In this document: positions 1-15,299 of the stretch, piece by piece
Layout of the letters: every line of letters begins with the position of its first letter
Position numbering within the stretch: position 1 is the first letter of the stretch
Assembly: GCF_011745625.1 (NCBI RefSeq)
Contig: NW_027191506.1
Location: 58,021-78,020, forward strand
DNA length: 20,000 bases
DNA from: Cladosporium halotolerans
Lineage: Eukaryota
Reading direction: 5' to 3'
Translations under genes and position numbers: made by a program
Notes under the pieces: model-generated
Databases searched by the model: none
What the model was told of the DNA's origin: nothing
What the model saw: only the letters and a program-made list of their open reading frames with translations

Positions 1-1
1 A

Positions 2-115
2 AAGGCGCATTTGAGGCAAAGCCATAGCGCTTTCGCATTGAGCGTCAGGAGAGAAATCGAAGCATTCGTGAACACACTCACAGACGTTGCGCATCGACAC
101 GAAGAAGTCTACCCC
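2..115 (+). pseudogene. Fragment of a TLH/YR-helicase family member (copy A), N-terminal zinc-finger region; begins before the window and is truncated near 110-120
   Basis: Frame reads KAHLRQSHSAFALSVRREIEAFVNTLTDVAHRHEEVYP. It aligns with HLQTHHKRLSIEQRNDFVSRVEGCTELAKIHADVVYP (copy D) and HLREHHPQVGKEKRSRIAAIGVALEEVAHSKEEVVYP (copy E). Similarity stops after YP. Confidence 0.7.
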
Positions 116-651
116 CCACGGGTCCCCGGTGAGACCGGGCCCTCCCCTACTTATACCGGTCCTCGGATAACCCCGTCGATCCTTCGATTTTTACCTCGAC
201 GGCTATCGTAGCTACGGGGCTCTACCTATTTTTACTATATACCGGATTACTTAGACTATAAGGGAAAAATAAAGTCCCCCTTCTAGAGCGGATTATAGAG
301 GCTAGAAAAATAAATAGGTCGAGGGAGCTAAGTATCCCGAGGCTAGATATTCCTTATATCTTAGCCGTCTTAATTTTCTTAGGCTATTCCTATTTTTTTA
401 CGGTAGTATAGGGTATATACTACTTATACCCTAAATATCTAAGCCGGAGAAAATCTAATACCTTTTAGAAAATTAGCCGAAGGATACTTAGGAGGCCTAG
501 GGTTAAAGTACCTATAATTCCTTAAGTATATATATTTAGAGGGTAACTCTTAATATAATAAGCTTAGGGAGGTAAACTCTACCTAGTATATAAGTATAGG
601 TATCCTAAGTCTCTTACTTTTAGATATAGTAAGATTAGGGTTAGGGTATAT

Positions 652-1122
652 TTAGTATAATACTTAGCTAATTTTATCTCGAGCCCTCGATTTTTTTAGA
701 GCTTAATTCTATTTTTCCTATATAGTCGAATACTAAAAGAGTCTAATAAAAATAAAAGCTAAATAGGAAAAAATCGGAGAGGCGAGATAAATTTCCGGTA
801 AAATATCCCTTATAATTTAAGGGCGGATATTAAGGTTATAGCTTTATCTAGATCGATCTTAGAGATAGATATATCTCAGAAATATAAGCTTAGGGTAGCC
901 CCGGTCCCCCTAGGGTAGTTTATAGATTTAAATATAAGGATATAATAATTATCTCTATTATACTCCGGTTAGAGGTAGGGTTAGTAAAGTATTTAGCTAA
1001 TTTTAACTCGAGACCTAGATTTTTTAGGGCTTAGCCCTATATATCCTATATAGTCCTATACGGATAGAATTTAGGAAAAATAACGGTTAAGTAAATAAAA
1101 ATCGGAGAGACGAGATAAAATT
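652..1122 (+). repeat. Two diverged ~140-bp direct repeats (652-793 and 981-1122), each preceded by TTAGGG-like sequence
   Basis: Shared blocks TTAGCTAATTTTA.CTCGAG, CCTATATAGTC and AAAAATCGGAGAG.CGAGATAAA at an offset of ~329. TTAGGGTTAGGG at 635-646 and TAGGGTTAG at 976-984. Confidence 0.8.
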
Positions 1123-1234
1123 CGATAGAGTTTTCTACCTTTTTTTTAAAGAAAGTATTATCTAACTATTACCTATATTTAGAAGATATATCCCGCTAAG
1201 TATTAAGAGATCTATAGGAATTATCTACTTTTCT

Positions 1235-4200
1235 TTAACCTTTCTTAGGCCTTCCTCTCTTATTAGTCTTTATCCTTTTAGGTCTTCCTCTTCCCTTCTT
1301 ACTAGGTTCTCTCTTCGGAGTATTTTCTTTTATATTTAAATTAATATTAATCTTCTCTTCTTCTTCTCTTTCTTTTTCTCTTTCTTCCTCTTCCTCTTCT
1401 CCTTCTTCTTCTTCTAAAGATAGACTATCTCGATTAATATAAGATCTTTTAGAGTTAATATTAGATCTAGCTATACTAGAATCTCTCTCTTTACGAGAAT
1501 TAGATATAGATCTATTATCTAAAGAGCTATAAAAAGCTAAAGGCGGAGTAGCTAGTTCTAAATTATCTAAACTTAAATCTATAGGATTATTATAAGTAGG
1601 AGATTCTAAATTAGTAGTATTAATAAAATCCTCTATTTCCTTATTTTTAGGAGGCGATTTAATATTATCTAAAGCTTTTAGATTAGTAGAATCTAATTTA
1701 TTAGTATATTTATTAGTATCTAAAGAATTAGAGCTAGAATCTATGATAATTCGCTTATCTAAATTAGGTATATTCCTTTTAGAAGATAGGTTCTTATTTA
1801 ATATATTAGAAGAGCTACTAGACGAGCTACTAGAAGAGCTACTAGTCGAACTTCTCTCTAAAATATCCTTATCCTTTATAGTAGTAGGAGCTATAGAATT
1901 AGCGTTAATATCTAAAGATTTAAAGCTAGAGCTAGAGCTAGAGCTAGAACTAGAACTAGAACTAGAGCTAGAGCTAGAGCTAGAACTAACCCTAGAATTA
2001 GATTTTAGTAGATCCTTAGGATTAAAATCCTCTATTATAGTATCTATAGTAATATCTTTATCTAAATTAAAATAATTAAAGTAAATTTTAGAATATTCTA
2101 ACGATCTAATAGTTATATCTCTAGTTTTATTACTAAAATAGTTCTCTTCTCTAGCGTAGTTTAGATTAGACGTTAAGCTAGATCTATTAGCTAATATATC
2201 CTCTATTCTATTAGGTTCTTTTCTTTTATTATTATTATTTTTAGTAGGACTTAGTAGGTTAAGATTATTATTAAGAATCTTTTCTTTAATTATATAAGTA
2301 ATTAAATACCGATAAGGCTTTAGGGTTAGACCTTTACTAAAGTATAGTTTAGTCTCTCTAAAAAGTAAAATACTTAATCTAGTAGAACTTATTAAAGTCT
2401 TATTATTTTTTAAAAAAAGCTTAGTTTCGATAGTTTTATAGTTTAGGTAAGTAAAGTTAAGATAGTCGATAAACGGTCTAAGGATAGTAATATAATATAT
2501 AACGACTCTAGTAAGTCGAGGAGGTAGATATCTGATATTTTTATTATCTAACTTAGTAAAATCTCGACTTTTACTATAGCTAGTATTAATAGCTATTAAG
2601 TTAGACTCTCTATTAAAAAAGATATTTCTAAATTTACTAATATTACTATTTTTATAATTTAGAATAATAATTTCTTCTCCTCTTAGAGGACTACTAGTTA
2701 ATAGATAGATATTTAATACTAGTAATTCTAGAAATCGATCTAGCTTTTTAAGATATTCCTTTATATTACTTAGGAGGTTATCTCCTCTATTAAGGAAGTT
2801 ATTAATAAGGGTATTAGGATCGAGAAAGCGCTCGATAAGTATATCTCTAAACCTACTTAGATAAGTAGTAGTAGATAGGTTATAGTAAGGAGTTCTATTA
2901 TCTATATTATCGTCTATTCTCGAATAGTCTATATCGATAGTATTATTATAAAGGCTATCGTTTTTAAAGAGAAGTAACTCTCTAAAGAGTAAACTCTCTA
3001 TATTAGTTAAGATATTATTAAATAGATTTTTTAGTCTAGGTATATAAATATTAATATTATCGATAGCGATCGTATTATTATCGATCTCTCTAATCGGTTT
3101 ATAAGAGCTAACTATTTTATAATTATAATATTTCAATTTATTCCTAATATAATATAGTTCGCTAAAATAGTTATTAGAATTAATACTTAGAAGATTTTCT
3201 AGAGTACTTTTAAAGAATAGAGTAGGATCTTCGATATAATCCTCTTTACTATAAATCTTATAATTTAAATATCCGAGAGTATATAATCTACTATTATATA
3301 TAATAGCCGAAATAGCTTTTTCTAAAGTATCTTATCTTTTAAAACTATTAGAAGTCCTTTCTAAACTTCTTATAATATAGAAAGTTAAGGTAGGATTATT
3401 AAAGTCTCTATTAGATAGAAGGTCGACTTCTAACTCTATAGAGAGAAGTTTATTAAAAAGTTTAAGAATAAGTATCCTTATATTATATAATTCTTTAGGA
3501 TTTAAGGTATTATCTTTACTATTAGTTAGGATTTCTTTATAATATTTTAGGTCCTCTATAATATTTAATATATCTTCGTTAATAATAGGCGTATTATAAA
3601 TATCTTTAGATTTAGTACTAATATTATAGATATAGACTAGTAGTAAGCTAAATTCTCTAAAGTAGGATCTTTTCGTTTCTTTCTCTAAAGCTTTAAAAGG
3701 TCTAATCTCTCTATTAGTAGAATTAGAATTAGTATTATTAATAAGTATTCTAGTACTTAGAGATAATAAATCTATATCTAAGGATATTTCGTCTCCTAAA
3801 GTAATAGTAAGATTATAGAGTATATTTAAAAAGGTATCTTTAGCTTCTAAATCTTTATAGATAAAATCGTTAAGGATAGATAGATCTTTTCCTTCTAAGT
3901 ATTTATAAAAATTAGTAGTTCTATTAAGGAAAGATCCTTCTTTATTAATATTAGTAATAGTATCTTCCTTATATATAGTAGAATTAGCTATAGTATTATA
4001 CTCTATATTGAAGTTATTAATTAGATCCTTAGAAGAAGGATTATTTAAATTAGATCTAAGTCTTAAGTTAGAGCTCCGATTAGAGCTATTACTATTAGTT
4101 ATATTAGTATTAATATTAGGTAGCTTAGGTATAAAGGTTATAGTCCTATTATATTTAAAACCTTTAATAATAGTAAGAGGGATATCTTCTAATATATTAG

Positions 4201-4758
4201 GATTCTTAATATTACTAATACTCTTAAGCTTATATTTATCGATTAAATATATAGATACTACTTTATAATTAATATTAGTAAAAGAATCTACTTTAGATTT
4301 ATACCCTTCTAAAGTTAGAGGTAGGTCTTTATAATAATATTTATTAAATTCTAATTTTTCTAGATCCTCTAAGGAATAAAATCCTTTATTAGTTATAAAA
4401 GGCTCTATAGTATTAAGAATTAGATTAGTAGATTTTATATTAGTTTTATTATTAGAAAGATAATCTTTAAGGTGATTTTTCTACGAAAATATTAGTAAAA
4501 GGACTTTTTAATAAATTAAAGAATAGATAAACTTACTTTTAGGTGGTTTTTTATAGTATTATAAGTAGGATTTATATATATTTTACACTTTCGGCAAATT
4601 ATTATCTTTATATCTTCTAAATATAATATAGGAGTATTAGGTAGACCTATAGTAGAGCTAGGTTTAATTTTATTAAAACTATCCTTAGTATAAGGCTTTA
4701 GATCTTCGAGAAGATTATTAAAATCTACGTTAAAATAATTCTTAATAAGGTTCGACAT
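1235..4758 (-). CDS. Copy B: spliced C2H2 zinc finger + tyrosine-recombinase-like protein with Ser-rich/acidic tail and two AT-hooks, no helicase; ~1155 codons; exon1 4758-4537, intron 4536-4481, exon2 4480-1235; one internal TAA at 3332-3334
   Basis: Manual translation joins the 80-aa and 633-aa ORFs. The intron has a GTAAGT donor, CTAAT branch and TAG acceptor (56 nt, phase 0), and splicing rebuilds CRKC...NHLKKNH. The protein is colinear with the 15291 ORF (ILEDIPLTIIKGFKYNRTITFIPKLP vs VLENIPLQVLEGFPNNKKICFIPRLP; IYNSRL; SPLRGEE; KGLTLKPYR; ANRSSLTSNLNY). It ends in GRGRPK and KRGRPKK. Confidence 0.8.
1925..1988 (-). repeat. Hexamer microsatellite (AGAGCT/AGAACT)n encoding a poly-Ser tract in copy B
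   Basis: Direct reading of the tandem hexamers, matching the Ser run in the translation. Confidence 0.9.
4481..4536 (-). other. Spliceosomal intron (56 nt) splitting the C2H2 zinc finger of copy B
   Basis: Minus strand GTAAGT...TACTAATATTTTCGTAG; removal keeps the frame and restores the second His ligand. Confidence 0.85.
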
Positions 4759-4910
4759 TTTTTAAAAGTAATAGATCTTTTAAAAAGATTTTTAATTTAG
4801 TAAAATCCGAGGGATAGTCGATAAAGTAATCGATAAAGTAATAATCGATAGAAAAGAAGAGGAAAGGGTAGAGAAAGGAAAAGCGAAAAAGAAGTCCTTA
4901 GATCTTCCCT

Positions 4911-5017
4911 ATCTACCCCTCTCTACCCTTCTCTACCCTTCTCTACCCTTCTCTACCCTTCTCTACCCCTCTCTACCTCTTTCTACCCCTCTTTTCCCCT
5001 CTCTACCCCTCTTTTCC
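4911..5017. repeat. Tandem 10-mer minisatellite (CTCTACCCYT)n upstream of copy B
   Basis: About 10 units with some degenerate 9-mers; the purine-rich stretch AAAGGGTAGAGAAAGG at ~4863-4878 is its reverse complement. Confidence 0.9.
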
Positions 5018-5212
5018 CGGTAGATATATCGGTAATAAGCCCGGCTTTATTAATAAAAGAAAAGGGAGCGGACGGAAGCGGAGCCTTAACCCTAACCCTT
5101 AGATAAAGACGAATATAATAATATAAATAGTCCGGATTTTAATAGTAATATAGAAGGATTAAGTCTAAGGGAGCCTTAATTATTACCTACTAATATATTC
5201 TCTTATCTTTAG

Positions 5213-5398
5213 AGATAATAGTAAGTACTTTCTCCTTTATAAAAAATAATAAAAAGGCTAGTTAAGATTACTAACTAAAGTTATAGATTTAGTTATAAGC
5301 TTTCTAGGAAAAGACGTTTATACTCTCGACTTTATTAAAGAGACTAGAGAGATCTATATTTCGAGTTCTTTAAGCTCGGAAAAAATTATCGATCTCCT
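5213..5398 (+). pseudogene. Fragment of a spliced gene divergent from copy B, product unknown; intron 5221-5286
   Basis: GTAAGT at 5221, perfect TACTAAC at 5269-5275 and TAG at 5284-5286, followed by an open frame LVISFLGKDVYTLDFIKETREIYISSSLSSEKIIDL cut at 5399. Confidence 0.4.
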
Positions 5399-5633
5399 TG
5401 TTACAGTGAAGTGAAGTCAGGACTCAGGTCACATGACTTGGTCACGTGACTCGGGTCGGGTCACGTGACTCGCGAAGCCACGCCTGGAGGGCGCTTGGCA
5501 GCTGCGTACGGCTCACCTGCGGAGCGTAGGGGACTCGTCCGCAAAGTAGCGATTAGTCTTGTACTGGGAGCAGTGATTGCTCAGCAGTGTCCTATACGTT
5601 GCGAGATTTATCTTTTTAGATAATCCTTTATCA
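5399..5633. mobile_element. Possible solo LTR or LTR fragment (not RIP-saturated)
   Basis: Starts TGTTACA and ends ...TTATCA; three GTCAC[A/G]TGAC palindromes at 5428-5470; GC-rich island with CpA/TpG inside CpA/TpG-free DNA; no clean TSD. Confidence 0.45.
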
Positions 5634-5641
5634 GTCTCCCC

Positions 5642-6733
5642 GATACGACTCTATTAAATAAAGTAGGAGATAATCTAATAGACTTAGACTACTTTAAAGA
5701 TCTTAAGAAAGTCCCGTACTTTCTAGATAGAATAATTACGCCGGGAACTCCGTATAATACTAAACTACTTAAAGGACTAAAAGATAATAAACTAATCTTT
5801 AAATCTAATAAAATAGAGAAGTATAATAGGGATATTAATCGATTTCTAGAGTACCTTACTCTAGCTATCCTATTATTTAGCGGAGGTCCTTTAAGAGCTC
5901 CCGAGCTAACTACTATAATATATAAGAATATAGAGTCGAAGAATCGCTCGCTACTTTATAATAAAGATAATAACCTATTTACTATAACTACGGACTACTA
6001 TAAAAGTAAAAATATTACTAGAAAAGAAAACTTAAATATTAGATATATACCGCCTATACTTAGTAAGATATTACTCGTTTATATTATATATATTATTCCG
6101 TTTAAGGAAAATATACTAAAAGAATACTATAACCTAGAAGATTATAATACTCCGTACTTACTAGTAAAGGATAATAAGCTACTAACTAGCTATAATATAA
6201 CTACTATACTTAAAAAAGAATCTAGCCTCTATTTTAATAAAGGATTAACTCTCTATAGTTATAGAAAAATAATAAACTATATAATTAAAACTAAATTTAA
6301 TAATAAAGACTACTTTAGTAGTTCGGATACTAATATAAGCGATAATATAGAAGATCGGCAAGCTAATAGATCTACTAAAACTAGCTTTAACTATTACTTT
6401 AATACCGGATCCTATTTTAGTAATTTAAATAATATCTATAACCTAAATAAAATTAAGGAATTTAGTATTCTATACTTTAATTATTTTAATCTTTTAAAGT
6501 CCCGGGATATATCTAATAGTCGAGATATTAGTAAGGCTATAATAGATACTAGTATAGAAGATACTCCTAATTATAATAGTAGTAGTAATAATAACCTAGA
6601 ATTTACTATAAATACTAAGGATTTAGAGAGTAATATTAGGCTACTTTATAAGAATAATAAGCTAGGGTTTAAAAGTAAAGAGCAAAAAGACGGATTAATT
6701 AATATTACTAATAATATACCTATTATAACCTAC
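5642..6733 (+). pseudogene. Copy C: internal fragment (364 stop-free codons) of a YR-helicase gene, spanning the recombinase domain to just before helicase motif I; truncated at both ends
   Basis: Absent from the ORF track because it has no start codon. It translates DTTLLNKVG...FSGGPLRAPELTTIIYKN...TDYYKSKNITRKE...KGLTLYSYRKIINYIIKTK...EDRQANRSTKTSFNYYFN...FKSKEQK...PIITY, closely colinear with the 15291 ORF. Confidence 0.9.
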
Positions 6734-7177
6734 CATTAGAGGACGAAAAACTCGAGTCGAGTTGTTTGAATTCTCACGTAAATGAACCCTTAGGGTTGGA
6801 AGTAGGGAGTCGAGTTCTTTGCTTTATCTGAGACGTGTTTTTCGCTTTTACGATACTTAAAATGCCCAAATTTGCAGCTGGGCATTGCGATAAGAATCAG
6901 CTCACCGCACGCTCGATCGCAGCCGAATATTCGGAACGATGGTGCGGCAATGGTGTGCTGCCATCTATTGCAGATAGACGAGTTTGGGGTTCAGGTAGGG
7001 ATTCTTCCCCACAATACAGTGCCCTAGGCACTTACAGCCGACTCCTTCCACGCCACTTTAATGACAGACGCGAGACAATACTGCACATAGCTGCATTAGG
7101 AAGCGCCGATACCGATTATAACAAGAGCAGACTCTGTACCATATTGGAAGAATGCATATCTCATAGTTGGAGGAGTG

Positions 7178-10100
7178 ATGGACGATTTTCGACGTATCTT
7201 TGAAATTGACTCTCGCCACCGCATTTTGATCTGCCTACCTTGTCAATACGCTGTAATACCTTCACATACCAAGACGCATCTCCAGACCCACCACAAGCGC
7301 CTCAGTATTGAACAGCGAAACGATTTTGTCTCGAGAGTCGAAGGATGCACAGAGCTCGCCAAGATACATGCTGATGTTGTTTATCCATTGCCAACTGAGC
7401 CTCCGATTCCTAGCATCCCAGTGTATTTCGATGGCCTGAGATGCGACGGCACCGATATACAAGGCGACAGATGCCAATACATATGTCGTACTATATACAG
7501 AATGCAAGAGCACTGTAAGCGGGAACATCAATGGGTGAACCGACAAACACGCGGAGGTGACTCGCGAGCGAAACGAAGCCACACACAAAACAAGAGGTGG
7601 ACGGAACACCATGCATGCCAACGGCTATTCAAAGTTTCTACTTGGCAGAAATATTTCGAAGTCGCCCGTCAAAACATTGGGAGTGGCAGTCAGAGTCGAG
7701 CAGAAGTAAGGCACGACTTCTTCCGCACTCAGGAAAACGATGTGCGACAAGCAGAGCATGACGCCACCGAAGATGCTAATCGAGTCCACGGCTTCGACGA
7801 CCATGTCTCCGCCGTAGTCCCTTGGCTTAGAGAGACGGGCATCGCGGATCATATCAACCATCTCAAAAAAGACGAAATCCGAACAGCGATAACGGTTCCT
7901 CCGCCAGGGGGTGAGAGTGATCTCCGGGTAATAATCGACGCGATGGAGTCACTGCTACGAGATGCCCACAGGCTATGTTTCGACGGGCCGGACTGCATGC
8001 TGACTTATCAATGTCGAGTCGTCCTCAGCCGCTTCCAGCCGTCGCAAGTCGACCTGACAGGCAAGACCAGACCGTTCGATCCGTACAAAGGACCGAAGAG
8101 TCTTACGGCATACTTTGGAATAGCGCTTCGATTCGTGTCATATTTCGCTAGGGTTGTAGCTCCTGATGAGTACCACTTTAGTCCAGCAGCAAATACCGAC
8201 AATGATAGCGAAGGACAGAGGCCGGAGGATATTATCGGGGCAACAGATGAGCAGTTGGCGGCATGGCGAGACATCCACCAGATGACACAGCGGAGGCGCA
8301 CAGAACGGACCGAGGATGACAACAACGACAATAGCGACAACGATGAAGAGGACGCCGAAAGGGACAGTGAAATGAAGAAACGGCTTCTGGAGCTGTGGCT
8401 GCTTCTCATCTGCCACACCACCGGCGCTCGGCGATACCAGTCGCCTCTACTGAGCTTTTGTGCCATGCTCAGCATCAAGCCGTCGACGCGGAGTTGGATG
8501 GAGCCTGGCAACTTCAACAGCAGCCTCTCCGCCATGATATGGGTCGTACAATTGCTAGTGTTCTACGACAGCGCCGTAAAGGAACAGCAGGGATGTGGGG
8601 AGACGCTGAAACTGGTGAAAGCCTACTGCGACCAATATCTTCAACAGACCGTGGAGACACCTATGGGAGAGATACTCAGATGGCGCTTGTTATTATTCAA
8701 GGTGTCGGGCGCGACCGTTGGCACCCATGAAGCTTCTTGGGACGAAAGTGAAGAGGTACTCACATACGGGGACACCGAATTACGGATGGACCACATCCCG
8801 TCCCTGCTTGCGTCTGAGTACCGGGGGTGTTGCCAGCTCCTTTACGACGATCTGATGCTGGGTCTCACGAGTCTTCGCCGAATGAGTCCTCGGCTCCTCA
8901 AAGACGGTGTCAACGTCGATACCGTGAGTTGGAACTTCGTCCAACACAGAGACAACGCGACGATCCTCGATGGCACAGAACGAGCATTGATAAAAGCAAT
9001 GGAACGATCTGAGCAATTATGTCGAATCTTTCTTGTTGAGAATAGTCAGTCGCCCGGTGGATTGGCATGGAGGGAGAGCGCAATGGCCAGTTACGAAGCT
9101 ACCGTGCAGGAGTTTCTGAAACGGCTCAGCGTCCTCATACACATCAGTGGCGGGCAACCTGTACGGGAGAGCGAGTTCTTTTCGATGACATATCGCAACA
9201 CGCAGCGGCGACGGTCTATCATCATCCGCTTCGAGCGTGTGATGGTACACGTGCAGTACCACAAAGGCCAGCAGCAGACGGGAAGCTACAAAGAAAATGT
9301 CCGCTTCCTCGCCAACCCTATCGGAGAATTGCTGCTCGACTACATCACTTACGTCCTGCCGTTACGTGAGAGGTTTCTACGGCAGACCTCACCTGGATCG
9401 TTACTTTCCCCGTACCTTTGGGAGAAGGATGGAAAAGTGTGGCCGGAAGGCCATCTAAGTCGGTACTTGGAGGAAGCAAGTGTTCGGGCGTGCGTGCCGC
9501 GGCTTCACGTCGCCAACTGGAGGCAGATCACGGTGGCCATCGTAAAGACCAAGTTTGCTAGCCAGATCGAATGTTTCGATCCCGACGAAGGCGACGAAGA
9601 CGCAGAAGAGATCGATGCAACGATCAGGAGTATGACCGAACAGCGTAATCACAAAACACGGACAGTGAACCGGGCATACGCCAACCAGGCCGGGGCAGTT
9701 TTTGCCAATTTGTGGGATGGGAAAGTCCGGACGGGACTACAGGCTTCGACGCTGTGGCAGGATTTCTGGGGCGTAGGAATGATCCTCAAGCAAAAGAAAC
9801 GTGGGAAATTGGAGCAAGAATCTCGCTTGGCGAAACGGGTCGCTATGGGCATCTACCGTCCTCGGAAGCCTTGGTCGACCGAAGCTCTCCTTGGAGGGGT
9901 GAGGAAGCTGTATGGCAATAAAGAAGCAGGCTGGAAATCCGTCGAGCAGGAGCAAGCTCTCGCGACGATAATGTCGTGGACCGAGCAGGTAGTCGCCATC
10001 CTTCCCACGGGAGCTGGGAAGAGCTTGCTCTTTATGCTTCCATGCACTCTACCCGACGCCGGGGTAACAATACTCATCGTACCGCTCGTTGCACTTCACG

Positions 10101-11681
10101 GAGACATGCTTCGGCGTGTGCGCGAGATGAAAATTGATCACCTCGAGTGGCAGCCAGGCGAAAGTCGAGAAGCAGCACTGGTACTAGTCAGCGCCGAGGC
10201 CGTTTCGTCGAAGGACTTTATGAAGTATGCTCGTAGGCTGATAGCAGAGCAGAAGCTCGATCGGATCGTGGTCGACGAGTGCCACCTGACTGTGACTGCG
10301 GCCGAATATAGGCCCAGCATTATCGAGCTCACAGCGATCAGGAGCCTGAGAACTCAGTTCGTCTACCTTACAGCCACCCTCCCGCCATCTATGAGGGCGG
10401 AATTCGAGGAGAGGAACTATCTGCACCACCCTACAGTGGTCAGGGCACCCAGCAATCGACCGAACATCTTCTATATGGTGCGTAGGATCGACGCTCACTT
10501 GGGAAGCCTTCTCAAGCAGGCTGCAACCGAGGCCAAAGAGGCATGGATGGAGTCGGGTTTCTTCGACCACGCCTACGACAAGATCATACTGTACGTTAGG
10601 ACGTGCAAAGATGCAGACGATCTGGCAGAGCTACTCGGCTGTGATGCGTACACGGCAGAGAGTGGGACACCGGCAGAGAAGAAAGAGATACTCGATCGAT
10701 GGGTTCGGACTCCGGACACGCCTTACATCGTCGCCACCACCGCTCTTGCCGAAGGGTTCGACTATCCACACGTCCGGCTCATCATGAACGTGGACGAGCC
10801 GGAGTCGTTGGTCATCTTTGCCCAAGAGTCCGGTCGGGCGGGACGGGACGGGAAACGTGCATATTCGATGGTATTACTTCCCGCAACCTGGCAGCCTCAG
10901 GTCTCAGATGTTCCGTTGGATGAGCCGCGCGGGACGAACAACTACAGAGATGACCCGACACTTCGGAAGCGCCACGATAAGGAAGCAGCGCATCGATACC
11001 TACTGGGCAAGCAATGCTACCGGACGTCCCTGAGTGACTACTTGGACGTCGCTCGCCATCGAAGATGGTGCATGCCCGAAGATGGTGCATGCCCGAAGAT
11101 GTGCCTTGCGACATTTGCAAGGTGGCGCATCAGGGCATGATCGAACCCGTGGATAAAGTCGAACAGGACGACACACAGGGCTTCAGCTCATCCAGCAAGA
11201 AAAGCTTCGGGCCCACACAGAACTAGCGCAGTATCGTCTGGACCTAGCGAGTGTGAAGGGAACGTGCTTGCTCTGCAGGACAGCCAGACACGACTGGAAC
11301 CATGATTTCTCGACTTGCCCACGGCGTTTCGACATCTTTGAAGAAAGGAACAAAGCCAGGCGGCGGCACGAAGAACGAGGGCGGAAATGGCTACAGGCAT
11401 ACTCAAGCTGCTTCTGGTGTCTGAATCCGCAATCGATCTGTCAACAAGCGGAGCTGGGAAGCAGGGGTGGTAGAGGTTGCGAATACAGAGACATTGTACT
11501 CCCGCTCTGCTTCGGAGTTTTCGGGAGCGTTGAAGGGCCAGGGTGGCTTTACGAGCAGTTCGAGCGGAAGTTCAAGAACGTGGAGGATTACTTTGACTGG
11601 CTAGGAGAGGAAAGTAGATTTGGAGGAGGAAGCGCGATACAAGCAGTGCGAGTAGCAGGGCTAGCTCTACGGTCAGTGTAA
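7178..11681 (+). CDS. TLH-like protein: C2H2/DUF3505-like N-terminus + tyrosine-recombinase-like domain + RecQ-type helicase + Cys-rich C-terminus; 3' end broken by two frameshifts (main ORF ends 11140, C-terminal part continues in the 11253-11681 frame)
   Basis: ICLPC...HLQTHH; GGQPVRESE, YHK, HVANWRQ, QRNHKTRTVNRAY; LPTGAGKS, DECH, TAT, QESGRAGRDG; CYR...WC...CDIC; CLLC, CFWC. ATG at 7178. Confidence 0.9.
11060..11101 (+). repeat. 17-bp tandem duplication CGAAGATGGTGCATGCC causing a frameshift
   Basis: Units at 11060-11076 and 11077-11093 followed by CGAAGATG; removing one unit gives WCMPEDVPCDIC. Confidence 0.9.
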
Positions 11682-11735
11682 GGATCCTAATTATGTTTTC
11701 GTACGTTGAGAAGTAGGAGACTAAACCCTAACCTC

Positions 11736-12776
11736 TTGGAAGTGAAATAGATAAAAAATGAAATTAAAGGTTAAATGAAAAATGAAATAGGAAGTAGGAG
11801 AAAGAATAGAATTAGATAAAGTAGATATTAGGTTTAGAATTAGGAAATATATATAAGATAAAATAGGAATAAAGTTTTTTTTTTTTTTGATTTAAGGAAA
11901 AGAAAAGAAGAGGGAAAAAGGGATAAAGGAGAATATTTTAAAGAAAAAAAAAAGTAAGAAAAATAGAAGGGAGTTAGGGTTAGAAGTAGAGTAGATTAGG
12001 AAGAGATTAAAAGGTTTATTATAGTAAAGAAATGATTAGAAGTTAAAGGGTAAATTAAAGAATAGTAGTAAATTAATGTTAGTAAGATTAAAAGTGTTAA
12101 ATAAAAATTAAAAAGATAAAGGAGAGAAAATTAATAAGAATAGAAAATTAGTAGGATTTAAAATAAATAAGAAGAAAATTAAGGAATAAAGATAGAAGAA
12201 TAAAAGATAAATTAAGAGGAGTATTATAAGTAAGATAATAATAAAAAAAGAGTAATAAAGAATAGAAGGATTTTAGAGTTTAGGGTTATAAAGAATTAGA
12301 AGTAAAGAGGTTTTTTTTTTTTTTTTTTTTTTGAAAAAAGAAAGAAGAAAAAGGGAAAAAAAAAAGAGAAAAGATTAAGAAGGTAAAAAAAAAAAAAAAG
12401 AGAAAAGATTAAAAAGGGAAAAAAAAAAAAAAAAAAAAAGAGAAAAGATTAAAAAGGGAAAAAAAAAAAAAAAAAAAGGAAAGTTAAGGATAAAGAGAGA
12501 GATAAGTAGAAAGAATAAGAAGAGAGAAAAGAGAGAAAGGTTAGGATAAGGAGAAAAGAAGAAAAGAAGAATAAAAGAGAAAGAAGGATGTTTAAGAGGA
12601 TTATAGAGGATAAGAATAAAGATAAGTAGTAGAAATAAGTGAAGGTAAAGGAGATAGAATATAGTATAGATATAAAATAGAAAGGATAGGAATAAATAGA
12701 TGATTATAGTATAAGATAGATAAAAGAAGAAGAAGAGAAGAGAAGGAGAGAAGGAGTAGGATTAGGATTAGGATGA
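11736..12776 (+). repeat. Cytosine-free A/G/T low-complexity tract with poly-T and poly-A runs, GAGAAAAGATTAA units and TTAGGG/TTAGGA motifs
   Basis: No C seen between the C at 11735 and the C at 12777. Confidence 0.9.
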
Positions 12777-12780
12777 CTCT

Positions 12781-14241
12781 CATTCTACGAAGAAATCACG
12801 GTGGTTTTTTTGAAACGTAGGCGAAATTTGAGGTGGGTCCGGCTTATCGAGACGGTGGTTTTTTTGAAACTTCGACGGTGGTTTCTTTGAGCATCTGATG
12901 TCGTAAAATCACGAGATAAAAGCAGAAGATACATTCTTGCATCGCAATACTAGAAATGTATTTAGATACGATAAACAGCGTTTTCTTAGTGTTGCATGTA
13001 TGAGGTCTTCTGAAGGGTTAGGGCATCGCGACGCGGGGCTGTGTAACAGAACACGCTGGCGTCGCAAATATAATGTCGGCGTTGACAGAAGAAGAAAGCA
13101 AGATTCTTTCTTGGGAGGGAAGGGCTAGGGAATAATTGCGATGCGGCGCGTAAATATATAGGCATCGCCCGTCGAGTTCAAGAAAGCGTTAGGGTTTACA
13201 CGAATTATTCTTTTCACAGCATCAGAAGTTGACACAAGAAATCTGGAGCAAAAATGGGTCGCGCTGGATGTGACTTTGACAGCATTCTTCAACACAGACA
13301 ACGATACAAGATCATCATATGCAAGCCGTGTGCTTTCGCTGTCGTACCGGAACAAATCGATCGTCACTTGCGTGAGCATCACCCGCAGGTCGGCAAGGAA
13401 AAGCGTAGCCGGATTGCGGCGATTGGGGTAGCGCTAGAGGAAGTAGCACACAGCAAAGAGGAGGTCGTATACCCGCAAGCGAACGAAGGACCGATTGAAG
13501 GGCTCGCGGTATACAAGGACGGGCTGCTGTGTATGGGACAGCGAGACGGAAAGGCTTGTGAATATGTCTGCCGAACGATTTCTGGAATGCAGAAACACTG
13601 CCGATCGGAACACGGCTGGGTGAACGAGAGAGGACGTGGAGGAAATGTGCGAAAGAAGGGGTTACAAGCGTTGAATCGAATGTGGGAAGACAAGCAGAGG
13701 TGTCAGCGATTTTTCGAGTACCGGCAGTGGCAACGATACTTTGCCGTATCACGAGAGGAATCGATCGGAGAAGACGGAGAGGGGGACGAAGCAAGGGAGG
13801 AAACGATCGATGGCGAGTCACAATTGCGAGAAGTGTTACGAGAGAGCCGAGCAAAGGTGTCTGACGCACGGCAGCGGCAGGCCGTCGACGGCAGCTTCAA
13901 ACGATACGTTGCAGACCCGTGGCTCGAATTCACAGGGTGGCACAGACACTTGCAAGGCTTTCAGTGGGACGATCTACTGCGGTTCGTCGAGCCGACGGCT
14001 AGAGAACAATTGCAGAAGCAGGGAAAGCGCGGGAAAAAGGCGGTCCGCATGCCGGAAGAGGATGAAGGAGAGGAAGAGCTAACGAGAGCTTGCAGAGGGA
14101 CGAGGAAGGTAGTACGAGAGGCATTCGAGGCGTGCAGACCGGGGACGACAGGCAGAGCGATATTAGAGTACGTCAACAGAAAGGAAGCGGCGGGGGATCA
14201 GCCGAGCATGAAGGCGTTCGATGGCAGCCGGAAGCCGAGAT
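12781..14241 (+). mobile_element. Copy E: 5' part of another family member (leader plus truncated gene)
   Basis: Sharp start after the C-free tract; three ACGGTGGTTTYTTTGA repeats; AGGGTTAGGG at 13014-13023; ORF homologous to the copy D N-terminus. Confidence 0.65.
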
Positions 14242-14288
14242 CTAACATTACCCCAGCTGGTGAAACCTGGTTACACCAGCAGTTTTGA
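13254..14288 (+). pseudogene. 3'-truncated TLH-like gene (DUF3505-like N-terminal ~330 aa); the last 14 residues are read-through into the copy F leader
   Basis: ICKPCAFAV...HLREHH, CEYVCRT...MQKHCRSEHGW, CQRFF...WQRYFAV and PWLEFTGW match copy D; ends NITPAGETWLHQQF, identical to the end of ORF 14463-15116. Confidence 0.85.
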
Positions 14289-14342
14289 ACCCGGTTACAC
14301 CAGCAAGGCTTTAGGGTTAGGGTTGTTGCTGGTGTAACCAGG
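14256..14342. promoter_or_regulatory. Four copies of GGTTACACCAGC (reverse, forward, forward, reverse) with TTAGGGTTAGGGTT between the last pair; putative recombinase or telomere-protein binding site (repeated at 15084-15170)
   Basis: Copies at 14256-14267 (reverse, 1 mismatch), 14269-14280, 14293-14304 and 14328-14339 (reverse); telomere repeat at 14311-14324. Confidence 0.6.
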
Positions 14343-14471
14343 ACAGCTACTGACAGGGGTAAGAAATTTCCATATTGTAAGCATTGTCCAACTTATGAAA
14401 AATTGTAGGTATTGCAGATTGAAATCCAATCGCAAAAACCTGTCGTTTAGGGTCGAAGCGAATTGGTAAGC

Positions 14472-15116
14472 ATGGAGTCGGACAACTTGGCTGCGACTTA
14501 CGCTTTCAACGATCTGCTGCGTTCCACTAGCAAGCTTTGCAGCCTGTCTTTCTACCAAAAACACATCCCATGCGCACCGGTGCAAGTAGTCAATGACTCC
14601 AGCATATGCTACAGTCAAGATCTCAAGCTCCTCTTGTGTACTACTTGCAGCAAAGTTCAGAGCCGAGATACGACGATCCGGCATCTAAAGCAGAGGCACC
14701 GCACCGAGTACAGCCGATTAAAGAAGGCCTTGAAATCGATTCAAGACGAAATCAGCCGTTTACCTATCAACGCTGCGGAAGCAATCAGCATCAGCCATAA
14801 TAAATATTACTTCTCTTGCTTGCCCATCACCTTCGACAACTTCAAGTGTAGAGAGTGTGCTTATGTCGACATCAATCGAAAGAACGTCCGAAACCACTTC
14901 CAGTCGCACCATTCTTGTCATATCAAGAGTACTAAGAGTACGAACCAGAGGGCAGACTACGTACTCGAAAACATTCCTCTTCAGGTCCTAGAAGGGTTCC
15001 CTAACAACAAGAAAATTTGCTTCATTCCCAGGCTACCAGTTCTCCAAACCGATACACCATCCACCCAGCCTAACATTACCCCAGCTGGTGAAACCTGGTT
15101 ACACCAGCAGTTTTGA
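14472..15116 (+). pseudogene. Truncated first copy of the copy F gene (two zinc fingers only)
   Basis: Identical to the first ~200 aa of the 15300 ORF, then reads into the second leader. Confidence 0.9.
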
Positions 15117-15299
15117 ACCCGGTTACACCAGCAAGGCTTTAGGGTTAGGGTTGTTGCTGGTGTAACCAGGACAGCTACTGACAGGGGTAAGAAATTTCCA
15201 TATTGTAAGCATTGTCCAACTTATGAAAAATTGTAGGTATTGCAGATTGAAATCCAATCGCAAAAACCTGTCGTTTAGGGTCGAAGCGAATTGGTAAGC

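Follow-up and report, generated by a model that had tools for sequence, protein, structure and literature searches.

A CA/TG-exhausted gene fragment in a chromosome-end-type array of zinc-finger/recombinase-fold/helicase paralogues of Cladosporium halotolerans

The telomere-linked helicase (TLH) genes of Magnaporthe oryzae, Ustilago maydis and Metarhizium and the Y' elements of yeast are described, in the parts of the literature cited here, as multi-copy, RecQ-like and placed at chromosome ends, and RIP-like changes are reported for the TLH genes of M. oryzae (PMC4522978, PMC11893274, PMC2621366). A low-GC telomeric RecQ helicase family of Zymoseptoria tritici, with a 3,480 bp ORF of 34.7% GC, is given in the cited part of its description as 13 copies, 7 of them full length, tightly linked to telomeres (Dhillon et al. 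2014, PMC4522978). For RIP-shaped proteins in AT-rich regions, a 'FYKIN-enriched, GAP-depleted' signature has been described (Testa et al. 2016, PMC4943192), and RIP-like SNPs are reported to be balanced by negative selection (Jones et al. 2024, PMC11615325), in both cases as far as the cited excerpts go.

The window, the whole 20,000-nucleotide stretch of Cladosporium halotolerans DNA analysed here, consists of paralogues of a single large gene in a chromosome-end-type array, and this gene resembles the fungal 'telomere-linked helicase' kind. The array gene combines OrsD-type C2H2 zinc fingers, a tyrosine-recombinase-fold domain and a RecQ-like SF2 helicase; to our knowledge, the first two are not described features of TLH genes. 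Five paralogous copies or fragments lie within the 20 kb, with mutual identities of 19-39%, far below what RIP requires, and these identities therefore speak only for past repetition. Copy F served as the reference for all comparisons.

1238 to 4758, minus strand: AT-type copy A, recognized by its frames and residual sites
4758 to 1238, minus strand, parts of copy A: ATG 4758-4756; exon 1 to 4535; frame 4480-3335; TAA 3334-3332; frame 3331-1238
4534 to 4481, minus strand: putative 54-nt intron of copy A, from GTAAGT at 4534 to TAG at 4481
5400 to 5632, no strand: GC-normal spacer between the two AT-type copies, 53% GC, 129 CA/TG per kb
5633 to 6733, plus strand: fragment B, an AT-type (CA/TG-exhausted) gene fragment, recognized by composition, open frame, relatives and junctions
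6734 to 6800, plus strand: junction past the 3' break of the fragment, where normal composition resumes; depth peak at 6623-6800
7100 to 11681, plus strand: GC-normal, very divergent paralogue D, with a frame change at ~11140-11157 and a long tree branch
13233 to 14288, plus strand: truncated GC-normal paralogue E, limited to the OrsD region; TTAGGGTTAGGG comes next at 14311
15279 to 19961, plus strand: GC-normal full-length paralogue F, 1560 codons, with OrsD zinc fingers, recombinase-fold domain and SF2 helicase

The sequence TTAGGGTTAGGG stands upstream of copy F at 14311 and 15139 and upstream of copy A at 5084-5101 (minus strand), so that TTAGGG repeats lie upstream of both copies; a degenerate telomere-like seed (TTAGGGTTGG) lies at ~6790, upstream of copy D, and a terminal array of TTAGGG closes the metagenome locus L002, which is closely related to F. 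A blastn comparison of 5400-5632, 6734-7100 and the 5' flank of copy A with the window and seven loci returned no informative repeats. Adjacency to telomere repeats is a likeness by description between copies A and F and the TLH genes, as the cited parts present them. In one set of 22 relatives, 1 bears a name from an annotated genome. Over the analysis as a whole, the relatives with names are all hypothetical proteins (Neohortaea, Elasticomyces, Agaricus and Serendipita). No member of the Z. tritici family is named among the matches, and that family is likened by description: it too is a large subtelomeric helicase ORF of very low GC in a Dothideomycete with RIP. The cited part of that account gives low GC only, however, and leaves the absence of CA/TG, a reduced alphabet, a mapping onto catalytic residues and a recombinase-like domain unmentioned (PMC4522978).

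Copy A has no helicase domain, and its C-terminus is Ser/Glu-rich with two RGRP motifs. Its residual CA/TG sites are the ATG, two Cys, two His and four silent sites, and its closest relative is protein P0022 (47%). One in-frame stop is present in copy A and one in the metagenome locus L003, which shows that decay is under way in some AT-type copies. Several organism-labelled public runs contain more than 80% of the stretch, but a listing for 1200-6800 gave no RNA run, and no splice joint appeared in the four runs compared. A 562-nt contig from run X11, RNA only by guess, is unspliced across the putative intron of copy A and is uninformative either way.

RIP changes C to T at CpA, seen as G to A at TpG on the opposite strand, and is usually portrayed as a one-way road to pseudogenes; RIP-affected DNA is recognized by a TpA/ApT ratio above ~0.89 and a (CpA+TpG)/(ApC+GpT) ratio below ~1.03. 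An earlier note on this DNA had pointed to 364 stop-free codons at 5642-6733 with no TpG and only two CpA, both in CAA codons at 6359 and 6683, and a direct count agrees: the 1092 nt contain 0 TG and exactly 2 CA, each forming the first two bases of an in-frame CAA codon (contexts IEDRQANRS and KSKEQKDGL). The stop-to-stop frame spans 5624-6739 (371 codons), and the extent of the fragment itself was corrected to 5633-6733 by comparison with the relative P0004 and by the junctions in other public runs, whose contigs have loose ends at 5633 and 6730/6742. CA+TG occurs at 1.8 per kb in 5642-6733, whereas F and D, the paralogues of normal GC, have 127.7 and 133.1 per kb. The RIP indices of the same stretch are 1.59 for TA/AT and 0.022 for (CA+TG)/(AC+GT); both AT-type copies and their non-coding flanks, which are as CA/TG-free as the frames, give 1.48-1.59 and 0.00-0.025, against 0.63-0.68 and 1.09-1.13 in copies D and F. 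The avoidance extends across codon boundaries, since none of 53 codons preceding a G-starting codon ends in T, though T makes up 173 of the 364 third bases, and none of 189 codons preceding an A-starting codon ends in C.

A chance open frame can be ruled out as the source of this stretch, because shuffling the sequence 1000 times with its dinucleotides preserved gave longest open frames, over all six frames, of 49 codons on average and 99 at most, against 364 observed; the remaining five frames of 5642-6733 hold 21-89 stops. A mitochondrial or alternative genetic code is likewise rejected, as a sequence with no TG has no TGA and the frame is open under the standard code.

That RIP would be the mutator behind the CA/TG loss is our inference from these indices. 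An AT-richness unrelated to RIP, arising from a general AT bias, an AT-rich donor through horizontal transfer, or an organellar or plasmid origin, would fit the low GC (25%) and the fact that Asn/Lys/Ile/Tyr-rich proteins also occur in AT-rich genomes. However, the depletion is specific to CA and TG: CpG stands at 21.1 per kb in 5642-6733, less depleted than CA/TG, and persists at 13.6-31.7 per kb while CA/TG is nearly absent. AT-rich genomes generally keep ATG, TGA, CAA and CAT, a TGA-as-Trp code is impossible with no TG present, and GC-normal paralogues lie within a few kb. Differences between sequencing runs tell against it as well, in that, of the 11 listed between contigs of three other runs and the window, 10 belong to the C>T or G>A kind and 8 fall at CA/TG of the window. 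One contig of run X16 (5217-6143) carries six differences, all in the 233-nt CA/TG-bearing spacer and none in the 183 and 511 nt of CA/TG-free DNA that flank it; this contig has a depth of 4.7 and is flagged as possibly erroneous, and three of the six recur in X17 or X11. Taken with these points, a cause other than RIP is scarcely credible.

The fragment matches residues ~630-990 of full-length relatives, that is, the tyrosine-recombinase-fold domain, a linker and helicase motif 0. It is cut off at both ends and lacks a start codon (with 0 TG in 5642-6733, it holds no ATG at all), the zinc fingers and Walker A, breaking off 16 codons past motif 0. It is 39% identical to copy F, 69% to P0005 and 98% to P0004, which extends 628 residues beyond it at the N-terminus. 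A Pfam search matched no family in 5642-6733 or in copy A; full-length relatives and copies D and F have both DEAD and Helicase_C. Since the fragment has no Pfam match and ends before Walker A, it is a piece of a helicase gene and not a helicase. As judged from sequence, it is best described as a dead, non-functional, doubly truncated piece of a gene that is an AT-rich paralogue to the zinc-finger/RecQ-like helicase genes beside it, and its 98% identity to the longer P0004 points to a recent origin. A 364-codon open frame with both CAA codons intact could be taken to mean that 5642-6733 is itself a working gene or exon in which selection keeps these codons, but this is very improbable: there is no ATG, 628 N-terminal residues of the nearly identical P0004 are missing, there is nothing for a motif-0 Gln to bind where the ATPase site is missing, and the ends of the fragment coincide with the junctions where contigs of other runs diverge.

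The two remaining CpA sites and the domain that holds the first of them are located as follows.

5894 to 6397, plus strand: tyrosine-recombinase-like domain, with conserved Arg85 (5894-5896), Lys121 (6002-6004), Arg208 (6263-6265), Arg243 and Tyr252 (6395-6397)
6359 to 6361, plus strand: CAA, Gln240 of the fragment (EDRQANR), first residual CpA site
6683 to 6685, plus strand: CAA, Gln348 of the fragment (KSKEQK), second residual CpA site, the helicase motif 0/Q-motif Gln

Both positions are Gln in copies F and D, as the earlier note had stated, with CAG at each site in each copy. Its assignment of the second Gln to motif 0, the Q motif of RecQ helicases, is borne out by HMMER: Gln348 lies upstream of where Walker A would stand, the fragment's KSKEQ aligns with the NNEQ of copy F, and the Gln of NNEQ, ahead of Walker A, is paired in the alignment with its counterparts in E. 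coli RecQ (1oyw, E 2.9e-4) and human RecQ5. The best whole-domain PDB matches of the helicase are DEAD-box RNA helicases (DDX17, 4.9e-10), with the matches to RecQ5 and RecQ confined to motifs 0 to Ia; a RecQ-like helicase is favoured by the DExH box and by the Cys cluster at the C-terminus. The first Gln, on the other hand, is not a helicase residue but is predicted to lie within the tyrosine-recombinase-fold domain, in a Q-A-x-(H/R)-S...Y motif 12 residues ahead of the invariant Tyr.

The central domain of the fragment is predicted from structural models to have the fold of the tyrosine recombinase/topoisomerase IB catalytic domain, and its catalysis is putative. Foldseek E-values for this domain are 0.05-0.2, and several of the structural alignments end at model residue 251-252, which we take, by chain numbering, to be the place of the catalytic Tyr of Cre, lambda Int, HP1 Int and human Topo I. 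In the family, the candidate residues are conserved in 56 of 58 (Arg85), 61 of 61 (Lys121), 60 of 60 (Arg208) and 53 of 53 (Tyr252) sequences; position 243, Arg in the fragment, is His in most relatives (His 38 and Arg 14 of 55). None of the 61 family members matches Phage_integrase (PF00589) or a related Pfam model at E<=0.01, and Pfam found only helicase families among these 61, from the longer members. Relative to tyrosine recombinases and type IB topoisomerases such as those of Cryptons and the Starship 'captain', the domain differs in being fused to zinc fingers and a helicase. A literature search on tyrosine recombinases with subtelomeric fungal helicases, or on Cryptons with RecQ, yielded nothing relevant.

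Full-length relatives, drawn from protein and metagenome searches, place the two glutamines in a wider set. In four of the five AT-type loci from metagenomes, a frame of 1553-1709 codons with 23-35% GC runs through without interruption; a single stop breaks the fifth. Their residual CA/TG sites fall in Met/His/Gln/Trp/Cys codons in 21 of 21 (L006), 29 of 35 (L001), 28 of 33 (L005), 26 of 30 (L003) and 33 of 70 (L007) cases, compared with 170 of 629 in the GC-normal L002. In 10 AT-type proteins, these five amino acids fill 103 alignment columns, of which 27 are common to 9-10 proteins, 9 to 2-3, and 67 are singletons. AT-type copies have no internal Met, and most have no Trp. What is retained is the start Met, the eight ligands of two C2H2 fingers, five Gln (among them the EDKQANR, motif-0 and motif VI Gln), the DExH His and a C-terminal Cys/His cluster. 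Copy F has 169 Met/His/Gln/Trp/Cys residues, 25 of them conserved in distant GC-types and 144 variable; 22 of the 25 are kept in at least 70% of 13 AT-type proteins and the remaining three in 9 of 13, whereas none of the 144 is kept (Fisher p = 1e-24). The earlier note had proposed that residual CA/TG in full-length relatives should map to conserved residues, and these counts are the predicted result.

Within the span of the fragment, its two Gln are the sole columns of this kind kept family-wide in the alignment with 10 full-length AT-type relatives, and by our arithmetic the chance that two random codons among 364 would match both is ~1.5e-5. Both positions are Gln in 6 of 6 distant GC-types and in 9 of 13 AT-types, with Leu in the other 4 AT-types; across the family, 39 of 55 sequences have Gln at the position of Gln240, and 12 have Leu there. 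Because Leu stands in the second AT-type clade and, for the first Gln, in copy A, the other AT-type copy of the window, the two glutamines are not strictly essential, and they are the least constrained of the retained set. The suggestion that purifying selection spared RIP targets only at essential residues is supported in full-length relatives and needs correction for the stretch for which it was made: the fragment is dead, and selection acted on its two CAA codons in an ancestor, from which the fragment inherited them, and not in the fragment itself.

Selection within the AT-type state is seen in four AT-type pairs with dN/dS of 0.28 (dS 0.68), 0.17, 0.17 and 0.23, calculated by NG86, which assumes even base use, and with three of the four dS values near saturation. 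These values place the AT-type genes under purifying selection. In the family tree, AT-types split into two clades, each sister to a GC-type clade (support 100 and 99), from which the AT-type state appears to have arisen at least twice; all sequences in the tree violate its composition assumption, a bias that should favour one AT clade and not two. The family is broad, with 496 cluster representatives matching at E<=1e-3, and the AT-type state is common in it: among 164 relatives fetched, 53 have less than 4.5% Met+His+Gln+Trp+Cys in a bimodal distribution, with proteins of intermediate composition also present.

One could regard the AT-type frames as unselected relics, saturated RIP leaving no targets and hence only very slow decay. 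This accounts for the open frame of fragment B, which has two RIP-mutable sites and 98% identity to a longer relative. It leaves unexplained how saturation was reached free of stops, as copy F carries 598 CA/TG and 76 Gln+Trp codons, 19 of these codons in the part aligned to fragment B. It also does not explain the low dN/dS (0.17-0.28) between AT-type pairs, or how 1550-1700-codon frames outlive dS of 0.7-1.7 at 23-35% GC, where single substitutions readily make TAA or TAG. We regard it as highly improbable.

The reading that we favour, and think quite probably correct, is that the AT-type genes represent RIP run to exhaustion, with purifying selection removing protein-breaking variants, and that the fragment is a recent dead derivative. 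The gene family exists in two states, GC-normal (~600 CA/TG per gene) and AT-type; in the latter, RIP would have run until its targets were exhausted while purifying selection discarded every protein-breaking variant. The end state is a 1550-1780-codon frame written in ~15 amino acids, in which CA/TG survives only where a codon has no CA/TG-free spelling and its residue no substitute, namely at the start ATG, the zinc-binding Cys/His, the His of DExH and a few Gln. An AT-type gene then offers 21-35 RIP targets instead of ~600 and 1-5 nonsense targets instead of ~75 and, with so few, could stay multi-copy without being destroyed. On this reading, the frame of the fragment is still open because it derives recently from an intact AT-type gene and has only two CAA codons left for RIP. 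Exhaustion of targets may thus protect the AT-type genes, which are presumably expressed and active.

The earlier note had framed the loss of CA/TG as recoding. Its observation that CA/TG is lost while conserved residues are kept stands; selection for RIP-proofness as such does not follow, because the flanks are equally CA/TG-free, and 'recoding' is therefore RIP saturation filtered by purifying selection. It might still be that RIP-proofness itself was selected, selfish multi-copy chromosome-end elements that shed RIP targets having out-competed others, an adaptation and not a by-product. The recurrence of the AT-type state and its persistence over dS 0.7-1.7, its frequency in the family (53 of 164 relatives), the telomere-repeat-bounded arrays, like mobile or amplifying units, and the recombinase-fold domain carried by these elements would all suit such a history. 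We nonetheless consider it doubtful, as the non-coding flanks have lost CA/TG to the same degree, so that mutation pressure alone explains the depletion and selection is needed only for what was kept, and the data do not separate robustness selection from ordinary purifying selection under a strong mutator.

One-step RIP products, sought opposite the xCA, CAY and ATG codons of today's GC-types, show no excess (ACA to Ile 0.08 vs ACT to Ile 0.20; TCA to Leu 0.00, CCA to Leu 0.06, GCA to Val 0.04), and only Trp to Tyr (16 of 26) and His to Tyr stand out, in a comparison for which AT-type and GC-type sequences are too diverged. With no one-step enrichment, the AT-type proteins are not simple RIP derivatives of present GC-type genes, and their history was probably long and stepwise.

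The principle shared with earlier work, as its cited parts present it, is that RIP or its leakage pushes coding toward Phe/Tyr/Lys/Ile/Asn and off Gln/Trp/Arg while selection purges the damage; those studies (PMC4943192, PMC11615325) describe statistical shifts over many genes, whereas here an end point is seen in a multi-copy gene of 1600-1700 codons, reached at least twice, with nearly all of the CA/TG that is left at residues for catalysis or metal binding. A search of the literature outside subscription journals found no description of CA/TG-free intact ORFs. Avoidance of target sites is familiar from phages that avoid restriction sites and from CpG depletion in viruses facing ZAP. The likeness is that an attacked genome loses the short motif used by the defence; unlike in those cases, the RIP mutator removes its own targets, so that avoidance can be passive, and avoiding the dinucleotides costs five amino acids.

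We give slightly less than an even chance to the notion that at least two lineages of a telomere-associated zinc-finger/recombinase-fold/helicase element became effectively RIP-immune through selected rewriting to a ~15-letter alphabet, in which Met, His, Gln, Trp and Cys are left only at the start codon, at metal ligands and in catalytic motifs. If the proteins are active, this would be the first described gene family to outlast a mutational genome defence by target-site exhaustion. The data give a testable answer to how genes survive RIP: surviving copies keep no targets except those that selection defends. The 27 columns in which 9-10 of 10 proteins retain a RIP-sensitive codon are in effect a saturation-mutagenesis screen run by nature for indispensable residues, and the AT-type genes are a large natural test of the minimal amino-acid alphabet for a complex enzyme; active proteins would show that a three-domain enzyme of 1700 residues can work while nearly devoid of Met, Trp, Gln, His and Cys. 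The AT-type frames also mark a blind spot of annotation, since they contain at most one ATG, have 23-35% GC and lie where RIPped repeats are masked. Confirmation of the recombinase-fold domain would change the view of telomere-linked helicases, and activity of the proteins would be evidence that the fungal 'telomere-linked helicases' are recombinase-bearing, possibly mobile, chromosome-end elements.

The frame at 5642-6733 spans 1092 nt, or 364 codons with zero stops, and lies in a stop-to-stop frame of 5624-6739. When this stretch was shuffled 1000 times with dinucleotides preserved, the longest open frame in all six frames had a mean of 49 codons and a maximum of 99, and the five other real frames hold 21-89 stops each; an open frame of 364 codons is far beyond chance. 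As the earlier note had claimed, the frame contains no TG and only two CpA, at 6359 (IEDRQANRS) and 6683 (KSKEQKDGL), each an in-frame CAA codon. The CA+TG density is thus 1.8 per kb versus 128-133 per kb in the adjoining paralogues of ordinary composition (GC-normal), with a (CA+TG)/(AC+GT) ratio of 0.022 and a TA/AT ratio of 1.59, while CpG persists at 21 per kb. The avoidance extends across codon boundaries: T-ending codons precede G-starting codons in 0 of 53 cases, though the third base is T in 173 of the 364 codons, and C-ending codons precede A-starting codons in 0 of 189.

One large gene is represented in the window by five paralogous copies or fragments:

1238-4758, minus strand: copy A, AT-rich
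5633-6733: copy B (fragment B), AT-rich
7100-11681: copy D, GC-normal, very divergent
13233-14288: copy E, GC-normal, truncated, OrsD region only
15279-19961: copy F, GC-normal, 1560 codons, with the Pfam OrsD zinc-finger region, DEAD and Helicase_C

Fragment B shares 39% identity with copy F along its length and has no ATG. Over 340 residues it is 98% identical to P0004, its closest relative, which has another 628 residues at the N-terminus, the OrsD region included. Fragment B ends 16 codons past helicase motif 0, ahead of Walker A, and flank-covering contigs of other public runs part from the window at 5633 and 6730/6742. Because P0004 has this extra N-terminus, the frame stops before Walker A and the contigs diverge at these positions, fragment B must be cut at both ends, and we take it to be a non-functional fragment. 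In copy D, the longest branch by far in the family tree, the helicase part ends at 11140 and a Cys-rich C-terminal frame runs from 11157 to 11681, a switch that could be either a frameshift or an intron. Downstream of this Cys-rich part lies an AT-rich block (11700-13100, 28% GC). Its purine skew is extreme (GC skew about 0.7), it contains degenerate GA-rich repeats and long runs of A and of T, and its CA/TG is depleted only in part (38 per kb).

The CA/TG void extends beyond the reading frames. Only ten CA/TG occur in 131-5398, and the non-coding flanks of copy A contain 0.0 and 0.9 per kb, which argues that the depletion is a mutational outcome, namely saturation by repeat-induced point mutation (RIP; C-to-T at CpA). 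The question left is why long frames survived, since the stretch of copy F that aligns with fragment B holds 140 CA/TG, and RIP would make stops of 19 codons there (17 Gln, 2 Trp). Copy A retains the start ATG and the first CxxC...HxxxxH (C2H2) finger; five of its nine residual CA/TG fall in the ATG and finger and four are silent. The H-x4-H spacing of the finger is restored on removing a putative 54-nt intron (4534-4481; GTAAGT, a TACTAAT branch-like site, TAG). Copy A is interrupted by one in-frame TAA (3334-3332) and lacks a helicase; its tail is rich in Ser and Glu and carries two RGRP (AT-hook-like) motifs. Judging from its nearest relative, P0022 (47%), copy A may represent a helicase-less derivative lineage. 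In its 5′ flank, about 13 tandem 10-nt units (CCCTTCTCTA-like, 4897-5026) adjoin degenerate telomere repeats at 5084-5101.

Fragment B matches 496 cluster representatives at E<=1e-3. Among 164 fetched relatives, 53 contain <4.5% Met, His, Gln, Trp and Cys combined and the distribution is bimodal, although an AT-type query (AT-type denoting the CA/TG-exhausted state) biases matches toward AT-type relatives. The full-length relatives recovered by protein searches with fragment B are 1550-1780 residues long, with 1-4 Met, 0-1 Trp, 4-19 Gln, 6-11 His and about 15 Cys. A metagenome scan yielded DNA of five AT-type genes (L001, L003, L005, L006, L007) and two GC-normal genes (L002, L004). Four of the five AT-type loci have uninterrupted frames of 1553-1709 codons at 23-35% GC; L003 has one stop in frame.

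Residual CA/TG inside codons that have no CA/TG-free synonym (ATG, CAY, CAR, TGG, TGY), out of all CA+TG
L006, AT-type: 21 of 21
L001, AT-type: 29 of 35
L005, AT-type: 28 of 33
L003, AT-type: 26 of 30
L007, AT-type: 33 of 70
L002, GC-normal: 170 of 629

The L007 gene (2636-7492, 35% GC) has 37 of its 70 CA/TG at replaceable positions; the gene seems to be gaining CA/TG again, which could reflect a relaxation of RIP in its lineage.

Aligning ten AT-type proteins places the five residues in 103 columns, of which 27 are common to 9 or 10 proteins, 9 are common to 2-3, and 67 are confined to one protein. Five of the 27 are Gln, including those of EDKQANR, motif 0 and motif VI. The others are the start Met, the eight C2H2 ligands of two fingers, the DExH His and twelve Cys/His at the C-terminus. 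Conservation of copy F residues among distant GC-normal relatives served as an independent yardstick for the earlier note's proposal that residual CA/TG map to conserved residues. The distant GC-normal set conserves 25 of copy F's 169 Met/His/Gln/Trp/Cys residues; 22 of these 25 are kept in >=70% of 13 AT-type sequences (the remaining three in 9 of 13), versus 0 of the 144 variable residues (Fisher p = 1e-24), as the proposal predicted. The commonest replacements are Trp by Tyr, His by Tyr or Asn, Gln by Lys, Asn or Glu, and Met by Leu, Ile or Phe.

The motif 0 glutamine contacts adenine. The identification of the Gln at 6683 with this motif is supported by HMMER, which pairs its copy F equivalent with the Gln found in E. 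coli RecQ (1oyw, E 2.9e-4) and with that of RecQ5. The Gln at 6359 lies outside the helicase. AlphaFold models of the central domain of copy F (pLDDT 82.8) and of fragment B (pLDDT 81.0) each have structural matches among tyrosine recombinases and type IB topoisomerases. Across 61 family members, Arg85 (56/58), Lys121 (61/61), Arg208 (60/60) and Tyr252 (53/53) are conserved, and position 243 is His in 38 and Arg in 14 of 55. The 6359 Gln sits three residues ahead of position 243 and twelve ahead of Tyr252; this position is Gln in 39 and Leu in 12 of 55 sequences. The claim that RIP targets were retained only at essential residues is supported in full-length relatives, and the two CAA codons are the only family-wide retained columns within fragment B's span. 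Of the retained set, however, these two glutamines are under the weakest constraint, with Leu (TTA, CTA or CTC) at both positions in a second AT-type clade. Copy A also has Leu (TTA) at the first.

Pairs of AT-type genes gave dN/dS values (NG86) of 0.28 (dS 0.68), 0.17, 0.17 and 0.23, indicating that purifying selection persisted in genes already free of CA/TG. In a maximum-likelihood tree in which all rows fail the composition test, 13 AT-type sequences form two clades, whose sister groups are copy F's clade and the GC-normal P0031 (support 100 and 99). At least two AT-type origins is a conservative reading, since shared composition should pull AT-types together. Some proteins are intermediate in composition (4-8% of the five residues), in keeping with a gradual process.

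Four public runs were compared with the window over 1200-6800. Ten of the eleven listed differences are C>T or G>A, and eight of the eleven fall on window CA/TG: seven in the 233-nt GC-normal spacer at 5400-5632 and one at 4010, one of the four silent residual sites of copy A. RIP seems to act on this locus itself and to spare the CA/TG void. In one run, a contig covering 5217-6143 (X16; depth 4.7, flagged possibly erroneous) has six differences, all within the spacer, with 0 in the 183 nt of CA/TG-free sequence to its left and 0 in 511 nt of fragment B; some recur in other runs (5497, 5499 and 5561 in X11; 5561 and 5566 in X17). This pattern is the most direct, though small, indication that target exhaustion protects sequence. 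The spacer separates the two AT-type copies, and three of the other public runs differ from it by C>T or G>A changes at its CA/TG. Contig depth is very high at 5501-5687 and 6623-6800 in two metagenome-like runs, so the units flanking the spacer appear to be repeats elsewhere.

TTAGGG repeats lie directly upstream of the starts of copies A and F. The TTAGGG repeats of the window and of metagenome loci, short interstitial ones just before element starts together with the terminal array of L002, are as follows:

635-646
5084-5101, minus strand
about 6790
14311-14322
15139-15150
L002, 237-248 and 5172-5255
L004, 3-14

L002, a close relative of copy F, ends in a terminal TTAGGG array. Like yeast Y' elements, the elements here have telomere repeats at their boundaries. 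An 830-nt direct repeat (14242-15071 and 15070-15899) is 100% identical, implying no RIP since the duplication. Each copy starts at the point where a truncated gene copy ends and consists of about 70 nt, then TTAGGGTTAGGG and then the copy F 5′ end, an arrangement suggesting that eroded ends have captured an F-type element more than once.

In the available text of earlier reports, multi-copy low-GC telomeric RecQ ORFs are described in Zymoseptoria tritici (PMC4522978), where that text has no analysis of residual CA/TG sites like the one made here; Hane and Oliver leave unclear how function is preserved in some RIP-affected telomeric RecQ copies of Parastagonospora nodorum (PMC3017866); RIP-affected proteins are called 'FYKIN-enriched, GAP-depleted', with fewer Gln, Trp and Arg (PMC4943192); and RIP-like SNPs balanced by negative selection are already known (PMC11615325). 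In open-access papers and bioRxiv we found no description of CA/TG-exhausted intact frames or of a recombinase-fold domain in such helicases.

We infer the following order of events. A multi-copy chromosome-end gene would be struck by RIP during sexual cycles, with tolerated and silent changes building up and those that create stops or destroy essential residues purged by selection; non-RIP substitutions would replace Gln and Trp codons at tolerant positions. The end state would have 21-35 RIP-mutable sites versus about 600, and 1-5 nonsense targets versus about 75. Fragment B would be a recent broken copy of such an AT-type gene, its frame persisting because little can hit it. Robustness to RIP may itself have been selected or may be a by-product. 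A gene with so few targets could remain repeated at little further cost, and the AT-type state is an extreme, apparently undescribed end point, although both the process and this kind of gene family are known.
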